This document shows, in pieces, positions 10,585 through 39,308 of a stretch of 64,000 nt of DNA. Position 1 is the first letter of the stretch, and each line of letters opens with the position of its first letter. The notes under the pieces were generated by a model. It was not told where the DNA came from and did not search any database. It saw only the letters and a list, made by a program, of their open reading frames with translations. The DNA is from an uncultured Candidatus Saccharibacteria bacterium (GTDB lineage: Bacteria > Patescibacteriota > Doudnabacteria > UBA920 > VMFF01), in contig CAYIKZ010000003.1 in the NCBI GenBank assembly GCA_964364285.1, positions 2,491-66,490 on the forward strand, in the 5' to 3' direction. The position numbers and the translations under genes were made by a program.

Positions 10585-10608
10585 AATAACTGTACAACTA
10601 ATTGACAA

Positions 10609-10633
10609 ATACCACTAGCCGTGGTATTTTTTT
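10609..10633 (+). terminator. Rho-independent terminator after mnmA (ataccac-tagcc-gtggtat + T7)
   Basis: 7-bp hairpin followed by a T-run immediately after the mnmA stop. Confidence 0.6.
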
Positions 10634-10675
10634 ATGTTAGTTAGTTGTGCAGGAGGACCTTCACCCGAGGAGAGC

Positions 10676-10957
10676 ATGCGACAGAATGATCTGAGGAGTC
10701 TGCTTTGTGCAGCCGCCGTTGCTGGCAGCGTTACCGAAGCACGAGAGCTTCGCAAGAAGTTCGTGAATGCCATCGGCGCACTCGATGGCTGGGTCCAGTG
10801 CGTCATGCTGGATCTGTATGACGAGATGCTGCGCCAGTGCCCGGAAAGACTTCCGGATCAGTTCGTGTTCTACATGTCGTGCTGCCACAGCGAAGCGGGC
10901 ACGACAGAGCACGGTCTCGGTGCGCTGGAGCAGGCGCTACTCGCACAGTGCACCTAG
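10676..10957 (+). CDS. Hypothetical 93-aa protein encoded in a compositionally foreign high-GC island (alternative start at 10634)
   Basis: GAGGAG Shine-Dalgarno 5 nt before the ATG at 10676. GC3-rich, Proteobacteria-like codon usage (CTG, GCC, GGC, CGC) unlike the rest of the window. High-GC DNA gives long ORFs in several frames, so coding status is uncertain. Confidence 0.3.
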   Translation: MRQNDLRSLLCAAAVAGSVTEARELRKKFVNAIGALDGWVQCVMLDLYDEMLRQCPERLPDQFVFYMSCCHSEAGTTEHGLGALEQALLAQCT

Positions 10958-11024
10958 TTCCATTCGGGCAACAAAACAGGGGCGATCTCTTTGCTGAGAC
11001 CGTCCCTGTGTCACGTCTATTTAC

Positions 11025-13540: not shown

Positions 13541-13615
13541 TGGGGTGTAGCCAAGTGGTAAGGCATGGGACTCTGAATCCCACATCCGTAGGTTCGATCC
13601 CTACCACCCCAGCCA
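13541..13615 (+). tRNA. tRNA-Gln (anticodon CUG)
   Basis: 75-nt cloverleaf. The acceptor stem is TGGGGTG/CACCCCA with U1:A72 as in bacterial tRNA-Gln. The 3-bp D-stem is GCC/GGC, the anticodon stem TGGGA/TCCCA with loop CTCTGAA (CUG), the T-arm GTAGG-TTCGATC-CCTAC, and CCA is encoded. It closely resembles E. coli tRNA-Gln. Confidence 0.85.
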
Positions 13616-34396: not shown

Positions 34397-35089
34397 CTAA
34401 TTCTCAACTATAGCTTGAATATGTTCTACGTATTTTCTAAAAATAGGGTCATCTTTCTGTCTTGGTCTCTTTAGATCAATAGTTATTTCCCGTCTGATTT
34501 TACCCTTGTCCATTATCACTACTCGGTCAGCCAAAAGCACTGCTTCCTCAATTGAATGAGAAACCATTAAAACCGTCAGTTTGTTTGTTCTCCAGAGCCC
34601 CAAAAGCAATGAATATAGCTCTTCAGCTATCTTTATGTCTAAAGCTGAAAAAGGCTCGTCTAAGAGCAATATTTTGCGTTTTACAGCCATTGCTCTAGCT
34701 ATACCAACCCTTTGTTTCTGACCCCCAGAAAGCTCCTTAGGATACTTGTTTTCAAAGGTCTTGATCCCAAGCTCAGAAAGGAGCTGCTCTATCTGCTGTT
34801 TTGGGGCATTTAACCCTTCAACCATAAAAGGAAAAGAAACATTTTGTTTTACAGTGAGCCAAGGAAGAAGTGCGCTATTCTGAAAAACCATCGCACTTTG
34901 ATCATCTGTATGTACAACACCTTTGCTTGGTTCTATCAATCCCGCCACAATTTTTAACAAAGTAGTTTTACCACTCCTCGATTCTCCCACAATACAAACA
35001 AACTCAGATGAATCAATATTTAAATCAACATCATTTAAAATCTCTGTCTCCCCGTAATATTTATATATGTTTTCAAGGATTATCTTCAT
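34397..35089 (-). CDS. ABC transporter ATP-binding protein (NitT/TauT-like)
   Basis: Walker A GESRSGKTT, signature LSGGQKQRVGIARA and Walker B ILLLDEP. Confidence 0.85.
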   Translation of the reverse strand: MKIILENIYKYYGETEILNDVDLNIDSSEFVCIVGESRSGKTTLLKIVAGLIEPSKGVVHTDDQSAMVFQNSALLPWLTVKQNVSFPFMVEGLNAPKQQIEQLLSELGIKTFENKYPKELSGGQKQRVGIARAMAVKRKILLLDEPFSALDIKIAEELYSLLLGLWRTNKLTVLMVSHSIEEAVLLADRVVIMDKGKIRREITIDLKRPRQKDDPIFRKYVEHIQAIVEN

Positions 35090-35882
35090 TCGAATTTAAA
35101 CCTTTCACCGTATTCAGTTAATCTATGCCAAACTAAACGGTCCACAATTAAAATCAAAGCAACTAAGACAAGGAGAGATGCGACGAACAAACCAATGTTG
35201 TACCCTGCTGAAACAGACAAAAGATTTCCTAACCCTGGCAAACTAATCTGAATGTTTCCGTAATTTATGTATTCAGAGATTATGATCACATTCCAACCTT
35301 CTCCGAAAGAAAGAATTGAACCTATTACAAGTTGTGGAAAAATTCCTGGAAGTATAACTTTAAAAACATTTGAATTCCTTTTGCATTGTAAACCCTTGCA
35401 GCATCAAAGATTTCTTCTGGGATTAAATGTAACCCTCCTAGAGCTCCAAACAGGATTGACCAGAACATGGCTATTACTAAAACAAGTTGTGCTGCTAGCT
35501 CTGCTAAATGTAGTTGCGCAAAAACAACAATTATTAAAGGAAAGAAAGCAAGGACAGGAACGCTTTGCAATATATCAAAGATTGGTACTAGGAAGTTTTC
35601 AACTTTTTTGTGTCTAGTAACAACAAAAACTGCTAGAAGCGCTAAAAATAAGGAAACAAAATATGCGGCACAAAGCCTTAAGAAAGTATACCCAGAATAC
35701 AGCAGTAATTGAGTTATTGACACATCTTTAAATATCAAAAAAAACTTTGATAAATCTATTGTCTTAAACCCGCTTTCTAGATATATAGCTAGAGTGGCAA
35801 TAATCAAAAAGCTGAGTATGTAAAAGAATACTCTGCCACCAAAAGTGTGCTTTCTAAGATGATATTTTGTATGCCTGAACAT
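35086..35882 (-). pseudogene. ABC transporter permease split by a -1 frameshift in an A5/T5 homopolymer (ORFs 35325..35882 and 35086..35289). Either a sequencing error or a pseudogene
   Basis: The upstream ORF ends ...EEIFDAARVYNAKGIQMFLKLYFQEFFHNL*. The other frame continues KVILPGIFPQLVIGS...ISEYINYG, which matches the conserved permease EAA-loop / F-x-K-V-x-LP block. One extra T in the run at 35362-35366 restores a ~260-aa permease. Confidence 0.6.
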
Positions 35883-36451: not shown

Positions 36452-37684
36452 TTAATGCTTTTTGTTTAAGGATTCAACTCTACGCAGTTCTTTGATTATT
36501 GACCCGCTTACTTTAACAAACTGATCAAGATCAAATTTTTTAGTAGCTCTTCCAAGAGTTATACGTACACTTGCCTTAGCGTCATACTTGTCCAAACCAA
36601 TTGCTAAAAGAACATGTGACGGATCAAGGCTCGTTGAAGCACAAGCAGAGCCAGTTGAAACAGCAAACCCTTGAGCATCAAGATACAAAAGCAACGCTTC
36701 TCCGTCTATACCAACAAATGAAAAATTAACATTATTTGGTAAACGCAAAATATTTTTCTCTGAATCTTTTTCAACAGAAGGACCATTTAATATTGAACCT
36801 GGAATTGTTTTTTGAATCCTTGAGATCAAATAGTTTCGCAGAATTCTTAATCTTTTGTTTTCTGACTTTTTCAAACGTTCAGCAATCTCTAATGCTTTTG
36901 CAAAACCAATAATCCCGGGGGTATTTTCTGTTCCCGAACGCAAACCTCTTTCCTGTCCCCCGCCATAGATCAAAGGCTTTAATTTAACCCCATTTCTTAT
37001 ATACAACAAACCAATTTGTTTTGGTCCATAAATCTTGCTTGCATTCAAAGTCATTAAATCAACACCTAGCTTGTTAACATTCAAATCCAAAGCACCTGCT
37101 GCTTGGCACGCATCAGTGTGCAAAAGAATCTTTTGTTCCCTATTTAAATTTTCTTTCCTAATTACTTTAGCTAACTCGTTTATTGGTTGAACAGTTCCAA
37201 TTTCGTTATTTGCATAAATCACACTAACTAAAACTGTATTCTTTTTAATTGCTTTAACAAGCTCTTTTGAATTAACAAAACCCTGATTATTAACTTTGAG
37301 TATTGTTAATTCAACGCCCTCACCTTTTAAAGCTTTTGCGCTTTCTAAAACAGCATGATGTTCAATTGCAGAAACTATGATGTGTGGTTTTTTGAATCCA
37401 GAAGAAATTGCTTGTCTTACAACCCCAAACAAAGCAAGGTTAACAGATTCAGTTCCACCACCTGCGAATATTATCTCGCCTTCTCTCGCTCCTAATATAT
37501 TTCCGATTGTTTTTCTTGCTGTATCAATATCAAACTTAGCTTCCATTCCAAGCTCATAAATACTAGAAGCATTACCAAACTTTTTTGATAGGTATGGTTG
37601 CATAGCACGAACAACCTCTTGATCTAGAGGTGTTGTCGCGGCATGATCTAGATATATTAACTTTCTCTTTTTATTCCCTAACAT
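36452..37684 (-). CDS. iscS: Cysteine desulfurase (NifS/IscS/SufS-like class V aminotransferase)
   Basis: The PLP-lysine region LMTLNASKIYGPKQIG matches the IscS consensus SGHKIYGPKGVG. The N-terminal LDHAATTP is also conserved. Confidence 0.85.
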   Translation of the reverse strand: MLGNKKRKLIYLDHAATTPLDQEVVRAMQPYLSKKFGNASSIYELGMEAKFDIDTARKTIGNILGAREGEIIFAGGGTESVNLALFGVVRQAISSGFKKPHIIVSAIEHHAVLESAKALKGEGVELTILKVNNQGFVNSKELVKAIKKNTVLVSVIYANNEIGTVQPINELAKVIRKENLNREQKILLHTDACQAAGALDLNVNKLGVDLMTLNASKIYGPKQIGLLYIRNGVKLKPLIYGGGQERGLRSGTENTPGIIGFAKALEIAERLKKSENKRLRILRNYLISRIQKTIPGSILNGPSVEKDSEKNILRLPNNVNFSFVGIDGEALLLYLDAQGFAVSTGSACASTSLDPSHVLLAIGLDKYDAKASVRITLGRATKKFDLDQFVKVSGSIIKELRRVESLNKKH

Positions 37685-37704
37685 ACAGCAAATTATCTCA
37701 TATT

Positions 37705-37732
37705 TGACCTATTTCTTCAATGTTCTAAAATT
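37705..37732 (+). promoter_or_regulatory. Sigma-70-like promoter (TTGACC - 16 nt - TAAAAT) driving the GC-rich structured element
   Basis: Near-consensus -35 and -10 with a 16-nt spacer. The predicted TSS at ~37739 coincides with the start of the GC-rich segment. Confidence 0.35.
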
Positions 37733-37738
37733 AAGTTG

Positions 37739-37995
37739 TTGACTAGCTCAGTCCTACCGGGAGGGTGGGCTGATCAACCCGGGCAAAGCTTGCCCAGGTA
37801 TCTCGCATGAACTCTTATGCAAACTGGGTAGGGAGCCAATCAATCCATCCTGCTTACCTACACAGGAGATATCTTAAGAGCGGAGTGTGCCCAGAGAAAT
37901 TGCGAGGAGTGAAAAGGATGGGGATGAGGCCAGAAGGCCTCTCGAAGGTTGTGCACGCCTATTTTGGCCTCTGCACAACCCTCTTCCCAATTGCT
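37739..37995 (+). ncRNA. GC-rich (~55%) highly structured element: candidate ncRNA or long structured 5' leader of the downstream methyltransferase gene (class unknown)
   Basis: Sharp GC jump in an AT-rich genome. Local hairpins include ccggg..cccgg, gcaa-agc-ttgc, gaggcc-AGAA-ggcctc and ttgtgca..tgcacaa. Long-range complementarities include cctacc/ggtagg and ccatcc/ggatgg. The only ORF in the segment (37807..37998, 63 aa) is likely spurious. Confidence 0.35.
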
Positions 37996-38030
37996 TGAAT
38001 GCTTTGATTACTGTAATATCTTAAGTACAT

Positions 38031-39308
38031 ATGCAATACGCATTCATCTTAGGGAGGGTGTATACATTATCAATTGCTGAACTTTTAGTTGTCCTCGAAG
38101 AGGAACTTGTTGAACATAGTATCCCTTTTAAAATCATAGCCGTTTCTATTGAAGCGCTAATCATTGAAACTGAAAAACAAATAGATCATGAAAAACTCCA
38201 ACGTCGCTTAGGTGGAGTTATTAAAATTGTAAAAATAGTTGACTCTGTAAAAAAGCGCCCTCAAGATTCCATAAACTTCGCGCTCCAAAATTACTTTAAA
38301 CCAAGCAAGTTAAAAAAAGACTTCCTTAAAGAATACTCCGGAAAAAAGCAATTCGGAGTAAGCGTGTACTTGCTTGATCCAACAATCAAGGGTTTTGGGG
38401 AACCAAAACGCCTTGGTATGTTCATCAAGAAAGGATTACAAGAGGAAGGCGCTTCAATTAGAGTTTGCTTACCCGACTACAATTCCCTTTCTCTTGCCTC
38501 TGTTGTTGTTACAAAAAATCTTTTACTTCAAAAAGGAGCTGAGATTGTTGTAATAGCTGGAATTGATAGGGTCTATGTTGGTAAAACTTTAATTGTCCAA
38601 GACTTTGAAGACTATGGTAGACGCGACTATCAACGACCAATACGAGATGACAAACAAGGCATGATTCCTCCAAAGGTTGCTCAAATTATGATTAACTTTG
38701 CGCGTTTACCAAAGAATGCAATTGTTTTAGATCCTTTTTGTGGTATTGGAACAATCATTCAAGAAGCAATTCTCCTTGGTTACAAAGGATATGGATCTGA
38801 TATTGCTAAGTTTGCAATATCTGGGAGTGAGAAAAACCTTGAATGGTTTAGAAACAGATATAAAATTCCTCCTGGTAAATACAAACTTGAGGTCGCAGAT
38901 GTTGCTGATGTGGCTACTACTTTCAAAGGAGAAAAGATAGCAGGAGTTGTAACAGAGGGATATTTAGGACCAATGTATGGCTCCTTCCCTAAAGATACAG
39001 ATATTCAAAAGAACTTTGAGGATCTTAAAAAACTATGGATATCTGCTTTCAAAGCTTTTAAAAACCTCATTCCTAAAGGGACTAGGGTTGTCATCTGTCT
39101 TCCTTGCTACAGAAAAGACGCTGATTCATATATCCCCTTTCCAAGCGTTGACTTCATCACTGATTTAGGCTACAATATTGAAGATCTATTTCCTCCTACT
39201 GCTAAAAAGTTGATGCCGTTTCTGAAGATTACAGAACGAAACTCAATGATCTATGATCGTAAAGATCAGGTTGTGGCAAGAGAAATTATCACGTTCATTA
39301 ATAATTAA
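38031..39308 (+). CDS. Class I SAM-dependent RNA methyltransferase (Trm11/RlmL/UPF0020-like, possibly N-terminal THUMP-like domain)
   Basis: Motif I LDPFCGIGTIIQEAILLGYKGYGSDI (DPFCGSGT-type) is typical of THUMP-associated m2G RNA methyltransferases. Confidence 0.55.
   Translation: MQYAFILGRVYTLSIAELLVVLEEELVEHSIPFKIIAVSIEALIIETEKQIDHEKLQRRLGGVIKIVKIVDSVKKRPQDSINFALQNYFKPSKLKKDFLKEYSGKKQFGVSVYLLDPTIKGFGEPKRLGMFIKKGLQEEGASIRVCLPDYNSLSLASVVVTKNLLLQKGAEIVVIAGIDRVYVGKTLIVQDFEDYGRRDYQRPIRDDKQGMIPPKVAQIMINFARLPKNAIVLDPFCGIGTIIQEAILLGYKGYGSDIAKFAISGSEKNLEWFRNRYKIPPGKYKLEVADVADVATTFKGEKIAGVVTEGYLGPMYGSFPKDTDIQKNFEDLKKLWISAFKAFKNLIPKGTRVVICLPCYRKDADSYIPFPSVDFITDLGYNIEDLFPPTAKKLMPFLKITERNSMIYDRKDQVVAREIITFINN

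Follow-up and report, generated by a model that had tools for sequence, protein, structure and literature searches.

What occupies the GC-rich intergenic stretch between an iscS gene and a methyltransferase gene in this Doudnabacteria DNA, and does it act on its own or as the leader of the methyltransferase mRNA? The stretch (hereafter the element) lies within the window, i.e. the whole 64,000-nt stretch of DNA that was analysed. It is flanked on the left by iscS, encoding a class-V aminotransferase of the IscS/NifS type (36452-37684, minus strand), and on the right by a gene for a 425-aa methyltransferase (38031-39308, plus strand), of which the ATG at 38031, named in an earlier, sequence-only reading of the locus, is the true start. 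Matches of the methyltransferase to UPF0020/N6_N4_Mtase were weak. Its nearest relatives (95-60% identity) were found in Candidatus Doudnabacteria and other Patescibacteria assemblies, and many of them carry the JGI label 'tRNA G10 N-methylase Trm11'. The gene neighbours comprise iscS, nifU, ferredoxin, ABC transporter, methyltransferase, L27 and CTP synthase genes. GC content per 100 nt rises from 0.27 (37650-37749) to 0.55 (37750-37849), which places the jump described earlier at ~37740; it remains at 0.47-0.53 up to ~38000 and then declines to 0.34-0.40, in a window that has an overall GC content of 0.364 and only one other stretch above 0.49. Across its copies, the element has a GC content of 0.53-0.59, as compared with 0.36-0.38 for the genome and 0.57 for the tRNA in the window.

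Homologues were searched for in 80 methyltransferase-relative loci taken from GTDB species representatives (92 further reported loci were left out), using nhmmer with the element alone and then with a five-sequence profile. Among these 80 loci, the element was detected only in the 4 closest genomes (L001, L002, L003 and L010), whose methyltransferases are 86-97% identical to that of the window and in which it occupies the same position. A scan of JGI metagenome contigs with one three-block, 23-base pattern yielded 7 stretches, including 3 true homologues, each located between iscS and the methyltransferase gene, and five more contigs were obtained via 88%-identical methyltransferases (ENA, Logan and NCBI assemblies). 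The final set comprised 13 contigs with 8 distinct sequences, which share 72-96% identity with the copy in the window. In 13 of 13 contigs, all from close relatives, iscS is followed by the element and then by the methyltransferase gene. Since these contigs stem from independent assemblies (NCBI, ENA, JGI and Logan), the element is no assembly artefact. A covariance model built from the element family (CM R1; match in the window at 37738-37985) retrieved nothing beyond the known copies from 790 kb of Doudnabacteria DNA. Within the searched sets, the element is confined to one narrow Doudnabacteria clade.

The features annotated at the locus were as follows (coordinates in the window, strand, description):

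37704-37709 and 37726-37731, plus strand: sigma-70-type promoter, TTGACC and TAAAAT with a 16-nt spacer; 10/12 consensus match, hexamers invariant
37738-37985, plus strand: structured RNA core, ~248 nt, GC 0.53; from the CM R1 match span, covariation and the strand test
37738-37755 with 37763-37778, plus strand: P2, 5' hairpin of 15 pairs; 99% paired
37779-37894, plus strand: P3, rod closing a three-way junction, with sub-helices P3a, P3b and P3c
37779-37784 with 37889-37894, plus strand: P3a; two-sided change present
37788-37791 with 37878-37881, plus strand: P3b; two-sided change present
37796-37804 with 37866-37874, plus strand: P3c; two-sided change present
37805-37810 with 37815-37820, plus strand: P4, short junction hairpin; 100% paired
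37824-37832 with 37857-37865, plus strand: P5, large-loop hairpin; 4/8 pairs with two-sided change
37845-37851 with 37915-37921, plus strand: pseudoknot of 7 pairs, P5 loop CCAUCCU with AGGAUGG; 100% paired
37926-37931 with 37936-37941, plus strand: P6, hairpin GAGGCC-AGAA-GGCCUC; outer pair covarying (A-U vs G-C)
37944-37959 with 37966-37983, plus strand: P7, 3' hairpin of 12+3 pairs; 3 pairs with two-sided change
37991-37996 and 38014-38019, plus strand: putative promoter of the methyltransferase gene itself, TTGCTT and TAATAT separated by 17 nt; inferred from conserved blocks

Covariation in homologous regions, which the sequence-only reading had named as a way of checking its proposal, was assessed with a model of ten helices (76 pairs, including one pseudoknot) that was tested on 7 and then on 8 distinct sequences. 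With 8 sequences, standard pairs made up 97.2% of 607 cells, and 16 of the 76 pairs showed a two-sided (compensatory) change; the figures for 7 sequences were equivalent. None of 500 column shuffles matched these pairing values; as this control ignores relatedness and the model was derived from the same sequences, the figures are generous. When the 3' partners were slid by 1-3 columns, pairing dropped to 40-50% and the number of compensatory pairs to 1-4. All helices except the smallest contain at least one compensatory pair, with many helix positions never varying among the 8 sequences, which represent one narrow clade. A selected fold is the only reasonable reading of these data, because single positions occur as three different pair types and because the slid controls lose both pairing and compensation. 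The strand was resolved by the same pairs. Minimum free energy z-scores were -3.2 and -3.8 (two runs) for the plus strand and -4.0 for the minus strand, so that both strands fold better than shuffled sequences. The proportion of paired cells, by contrast, was 96.9% for the plus strand vs 87.2% for the minus strand, with 54 G·U vs 4 A·C combinations, from which it follows that the RNA is the plus strand, the one served by the promoter.

These alignments also bear on the idea that a small protein is encoded here, or else that the element is GC-rich DNA without any function. A 63-aa ORF does exist (37807-37998), and long stop-free frames arise by chance in GC-rich DNA. However, its ATG is changed to ACG in 5 of 7 sequences and stops or frameshifts occur in several homologues, leaving it broken in most of them; variable columns are distributed 35/35/39 over its three codon positions, with no periodicity. 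The earlier impression that there is no convincing ORF was thus well founded and, as 16 compensatory pairs are unexpected for neutral DNA, both versions of this idea can practically be dismissed.

Helix by helix, P2 shows one compensatory change from C-G to U-A as well as changes from U·G to C-G. The three parts of the P3 rod are each 96-100% paired, with at least one pair in each changed on both sides. A local hairpin, GGGCAAAGCUUGCCC (GGGC/GCCC), is perfect in the window and competes with P3a and P3b; in L002, this local pairing is broken, whereas the long-range P3a pair is retained. Together with a double change from U·G to G-C in P3b, this break indicates that selection maintains the long-range rod. 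In P4, a C-G pair is replaced by U-A in 2 sequences, and a single P5 pair occurs as G-C, C-G and U-A. The pseudoknot contains 3 compensatory pairs (CCAUCC/GGAUGG, CCGUCC/GGACGG and CCGCUC/GAGCGG). Invariant segments of the RNA include GCCCAGGUA, GGAGrUAUCUU, GAAAAG and the whole GGCC-AGAA-GGCC hairpin, i.e. the inner stem (GGCC/GGCC) and the AGAA loop of P6; much of P3c is likewise unchanged. Since the inner stem of P6 and much of P3c do not vary while the neighbouring helices covary, these parts may be recognized by their sequence, with a protein as the simplest candidate. Overall, the RNA diverges at about the pace of the adjoining genes, and its pairings are maintained.

Two of the hairpins pointed out in the sequence-only reading (gaggcc-AGAA-ggcctc and ttgtgca/tgcacaa) are backed by covariation, whereas the third (ccggg/cccgg) is not: its bases are split between two helices, and its first copy is not conserved. 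Three further candidates were rejected. The first, a closing helix ('P1') that RNAalifold drew between 37734-37738 and 37988-37992, lacks compensatory changes; the likely transcription start is downstream of its 5' strand, and its 3' strand corresponds to the conserved, -35-like ATTGC block. A crossing P3/P7 topology like that of group I introns, suggested by the first five-sequence analysis, was ruled out by the refined model, which contains a single loop-to-3' pseudoknot, and by the lack of an Rfam intron match. The tRNA-like appearance of the 5' end (UAGCUCAGU) was discounted, as this segment pairs inside P2 and varies (it reads GAGUUCAGU in L010).

Transcription of the fold appears to be driven by a promoter of its own. 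The near-consensus promoter previously noticed at the GC boundary has the same two hexamers in every homologue, with a varying 16-nt spacer between them. Promoter-like matches are not enriched in the genome (46 observed vs 55 expected), so the weight rests on conservation and position rather than on the match alone. Spacing from the -10 hexamer, which ends at 37731, predicts a start of the RNA close to G37738, with which P2 begins. This promoter overlaps, back-to-back, a promoter-like site for iscS on the minus strand (TTGAAG-17-GATAAT with TG, 37720 down to 37692; joint span 37692-37731). As the -35 element of the RNA promoter sits between the two iscS hexamers, the RNA and iscS units may compete or share regulation.

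The 3' boundary is less sharply marked. In agreement with the previous remark that no obvious terminator precedes the downstream ATG, no terminator-like site was called in 37400-38400; canonical terminators are present elsewhere in the 64-kb window. P7 is followed by a pyrimidine-rich tail without a U-run, and because no terminator lies behind it, read-through into the methyltransferase mRNA is possible. Downstream of the fold, the blocks ATTGC and TTACTGTAAwAT are kept in all homologues while the 17 nt between them vary (consensus TTGCyy-17-TAAwAT). Its -35-like hexamer, TTGCTT, is weak, with a match of only 3/6, which is why the promoter scan left the pair TTGCTT/TAATAT unlisted. The conservation of these blocks suggests that the methyltransferase gene keeps its own promoter and that the RNA would form a separate unit. 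The last ~20 nt before the methyltransferase ATG resemble the same region of relatives without the element and are therefore ancestral.

The main rival to a separate RNA gene is a recently acquired 5' leader of the mRNA for the Trm11-like, SAM-dependent methyltransferase, riboswitch-like or otherwise cis-regulatory, with transcription proceeding from 37738 through the fold into the gene and its elongation, stability or translation being controlled on the way. Like SAM-I (RF00162) and other riboswitch leaders, the element precedes a gene that it shares its orientation with, has a promoter upstream and combines a junction with a pseudoknot; as in the case of SAM-I, the downstream gene is SAM-dependent. 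Moreover, the fold and the ATG at 38031 are only ~45 nt apart, with no terminator in between, and the element adjoins the methyltransferase gene in 13/13 contigs, an adjacency that is uninformative because all carriers are close relatives. On the other hand, the architecture, in which a rod ends in a three-way junction and two more hairpins follow on the 3' side, differs from the four-way junction of SAM-I, and no match to RF00162 was obtained at E<=10 in a 551-nt slice, so that the faint resemblance to the SAM-I core seen by the earlier reading did not hold up; nor was any other riboswitch family matched. The element also differs from riboswitch leaders in lacking an expression platform: neither a terminator/antiterminator arrangement nor an alternative structure sequestering the Shine-Dalgarno region was found, and no conserved pairing of the element to the methyltransferase start region was detected. 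An exact 10-nt direct repeat, ATATCTTAAG, is present at 37869-37878 (P3c/P3b) and at 38016-38025, just before the ATG. It was considered as a switch sequestering the start region and rejected, as it is not conserved in homologues; it is probably a chance occurrence in AT-rich sequence.

Comparison with orthologous loci weighs further against a leader. The order conserved in Doudnabacteria consists of nifU-iscS on one strand, a small gene on the same strand and then the divergent methyltransferase gene. The small gene encodes a membrane protein of ~100-150 aa, with a hydrophobic stretch at the N-terminus and the motif YHxPGxxxY...AGFR at the C-terminus. In nearly all of at least 75 other Doudnabacteria loci, 0-120 nt separate the small gene from the methyltransferase gene. 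The nearest outgroups (L081, L083 and L084; methyltransferases 76-77% identical) have the small gene, 33-45 nt from iscS, and are devoid of the element, whereas tblastn found nothing of the small gene in the window. On this comparative evidence, the element is taken to have replaced the small, divergent membrane-protein gene in the clade of the window. Because the orthologous methyltransferase gene elsewhere has a gap of 0-120 nt and no element, the latter is best viewed as a lineage-specific replacement and not as a conserved or ancestral leader. The gene works leaderless in all other lineages examined, and the separately conserved TTGCyy-17-TAAwAT pair between the last helix and the ATG further disfavours a leader. 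The riboswitch- or attenuator-like leader put forward in the sequence-only reading is thus considered unlikely.

Several smaller observations concern the lost gene. The minus strand beside the methyltransferase ATG (38008-38030) reads M-Y-L..., comparable to MxPYL in L081 and L084; by this weak similarity, it is a possible relic of the first codons of the small gene. A promoter-like sequence, TTGATA-16-TAAGAT, is located inside the start of the methyltransferase coding region (38046-38073, minus strand) and could once have served the lost gene. The small gene of L084 bore the Pfam label 'ArfC', but a new search of Pfam did not reproduce this label and a literature search was uninformative, so that the identification was abandoned.

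The element belongs to no described RNA family. It had no match in Rfam 15 at gathering scores, and cmscan with permissive filters, the search proposed at the outset, returned no family at E<=10 for the 551-nt slice. ARAGORN reported only a tRNA-Gln at 13541 and nothing in the element. The previous failure to assign the sequence by eye to RNase P, tmRNA, SRP, 6S or the SAM/TPP riboswitches therefore agrees with both Rfam and ARAGORN. A very diverged housekeeping RNA (RNase P, SRP, 6S or tmRNA) that the Rfam models miss was nevertheless considered. The element shares with these RNAs a strong promoter, apparent independent transcription and a stable, GC-rich fold within the size range of 100-400 nt, and CPR genomes are known for atypical RNA genes. 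Yet universal motifs are missing from the element (the P4 sequences of RNase P, the SRP domain IV loop and the tRNA-like end of tmRNA), and its helix order is unlike that of any of these RNAs. In particular, it lacks the CR-I/CR-V regions of the RNase P RNA P4 helix and has no match to RF00010, RF00011 or RF00373; it has no tRNA-like acceptor/T-arm domain by ARAGORN and Rfam; and it is multi-branched with a pseudoknot, in contrast to SRP RNA with its domain IV motif and to 6S RNA with its long rod and bubble. A housekeeping RNA should, furthermore, recur in related Doudnabacteria, whereas the element is not conserved across the phylum and CM R1 recovered none in the 790 kb searched. Such an origin is thus very improbable.

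Examination of the same slot in other Doudnabacteria showed that the space between the small gene and iscS measures 200-700 nt in many other lineages, and that these slots fold with z-scores from -3 to -11 on one or both strands (30 shuffles). Slot sequences show no similarity between lineages, and homology of the element with other iscS-proximal gaps was rejected after blastn, tblastx, nhmmer and the covariance model had all given negative results. On the iscS strand, several gaps contain, in order, a small-gene terminator, a promoter, a structured stretch, a canonical terminator and a TGnTATAAT iscS promoter. A helix of RAAGGAGGA (5') with UCCUCCUU (3'), whose outer pairs covary, is shared by 13 gaps (L013, L030, L044, L045, L050, L052, L057, L061, L062, L067, L068, L071 and L076; examples of units at L076:3149-3454 and L052:3201-3577), with L044 and L061 appearing to hold two such helices each. 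These units, which have no consistent ORF and no Rfam match, constitute a candidate Doudnabacteria RNA family. They resemble the element in being structured, outside Rfam and located in the slot beside the iscS promoter. They differ from it in lying on the iscS strand and in having canonical terminators and an SD-like/anti-SD-like helix. Neither the RAAGGAGGA/UCCUCCUU motif nor a terminator was found in 37700-38030, and CM R1 matched none of the SD-helix units. The element, which lacks both features and lies on the other strand, was therefore kept outside this group.

In the nearest outgroup, L082, the space between iscS and the small gene holds a different GC-rich structured stretch of ~330 nt (minus strand of the locus, L082:5350-5690), which has a z-score of about -5 to -8, a canonical terminator at its end and no Rfam match. 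Homology with the element was rejected, given that CM R1 with filters off gave noise and that this stretch, in contrast to the element, carries a terminator and is read from the opposite strand. In L004 (L004:2246-2859, plus strand), the slot is occupied by an ORF of ~130 aa that is GC-rich (0.57-0.61) and has GGAGG as its Shine-Dalgarno sequence as well as a canonical terminator, which shows that the slot accepts protein genes too. The recurrence of structured units at this site could mean that insertions are tolerated here, or that the units are functionally connected with the iscS promoter region.

The contents of the slot vary, from structured units that are unrelated to one another to the GC-rich ORF of L004, and this raises the alternative that the element descends from foreign or mobile DNA, as a relic or in domesticated form (e.g. 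a guide, bridge, retron-type or phage-borne RNA), and that its partner gene was lost. This would fit its GC content, which is far above that of the genome, the replacement of a resident gene and the narrow distribution. The genes nearby are, however, housekeeping genes, with no transposase, reverse transcriptase, Cas, IscB/TnpB or integrase among them, and the element differs from omega, bridge and retron guide RNAs in the lack of an adjacent TnpB/IscB, IS110 recombinase or reverse transcriptase and of terminal repeats. Transposon-like ends were looked for and rejected, as no terminal inverted repeats or target duplications surround the element. A phage or plasmid origin was likewise discarded: nothing was found in IMG/VR pattern scans, INPHARED or PLSDB (blastn), and CM R1 did not match the viral pattern hits. 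Ongoing compensatory evolution, in addition, argues for a present function, and a mobile relic is accordingly rated as improbable, and as less likely than a leader.

The reading that best accommodates these results, held with about even confidence, is that the element is a stand-alone, lineage-specific gene for a structured ncRNA of a new family that probably acts in trans. The stable ncRNA offered as one of two options by the sequence-only reading fits best, as the element is preceded by a promoter, GC-rich and structured, and contains no conserved ORF. According to this proposal, the element has a strong promoter of its own, arranged back-to-back with that of iscS, from which an RNA of ~250 nt would be made in the rightward direction. 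This RNA would adopt a compact fold consisting of the P2 hairpin, the P3a-c rod, the P4/P5 three-way junction, the pseudoknot, which would join the P5 loop to a downstream purine-rich segment, and the P6 and P7 hairpins. The folded RNA would act in trans and not as a cis-acting switch. Judging from the invariant stem sequences, its most likely role would be that of a binding partner or scaffold for a protein, which would recognize the invariant hairpin P6 and nucleotides of the junction. The RNA would have arisen or been acquired in one narrow Doudnabacteria lineage, displacing the small membrane-protein gene.

Orphan structured bacterial ncRNAs such as raiA motif RNA, OLE, ROOL, GOLLD and HEARO are known as GC-rich intergenic regions of AT-rich genomes. 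Similar to RNAs of the raiA and OLE type, the element forms a GC-rich island within a long intergenic region of a low-GC genome and has a covarying, multi-helix, pseudoknotted fold; they likewise have no assigned biochemical function. Its length of ~250 nt is far below that of OLE, ROOL or GOLLD. The element differs from raiA, OLE, ROOL, GOLLD and HEARO in giving no cmscan match and in being represented by 8 variants from one CPR clade, and from orphan ncRNAs in showing no association with phages or mobile elements. To our knowledge, hardly any CPR-specific ncRNAs have been described so far, and a literature search on ncRNAs of CPR bacteria or Doudnabacteria retrieved nothing relevant. GC-rich islands in long intergenic regions are what the GC/IGR-length discovery approach uses, as outlined in one account of it (PMC8632094).

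In a tiny CPR genome with little non-coding DNA, a pseudoknotted RNA of ten helices and 250 nt that is maintained probably has a function. Should it turn out to be an independent RNA that binds a protein or has a chemical activity, it would represent a new family among the few bacterial orphan RNAs with complex folds, and its small size makes it a tractable example for structure probing. The narrow distribution limits its generality; the unrelated structured units in the same slot of many Doudnabacteria nevertheless suggest a broader, uncatalogued phenomenon. Somewhat more tentatively, the element may be the first of an undescribed CPR/Patescibacteria class of compact, pseudoknotted, trans-acting ncRNAs (RNP components, possibly catalytic or ligand-binding) that was gained by a genome-reduced lineage and whose structure is under purifying selection, with the slot serving as a nursery of fast-evolving RNA genes.

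Two further observations were made in the window. Its sole other GC-rich island, at 10600-11000, reaches a GC content of 0.61 vs 0.36 for the genome and contains an ORF (10634-10957, plus strand, 107 aa) with a TTGACA-like promoter upstream and no match in a Pfam search; the island looks like foreign or fast-evolving DNA. Closer to the element, an ORF for an ABC permease (BPD_transp_1; 35086-35882, minus strand) comprises 185 aa, with a separate 67-aa ORF just downstream, whereas the orthologous permeases of L081-L083 measure 267-279 aa; this split may reflect a frameshift, a pseudogene or an assembly error.
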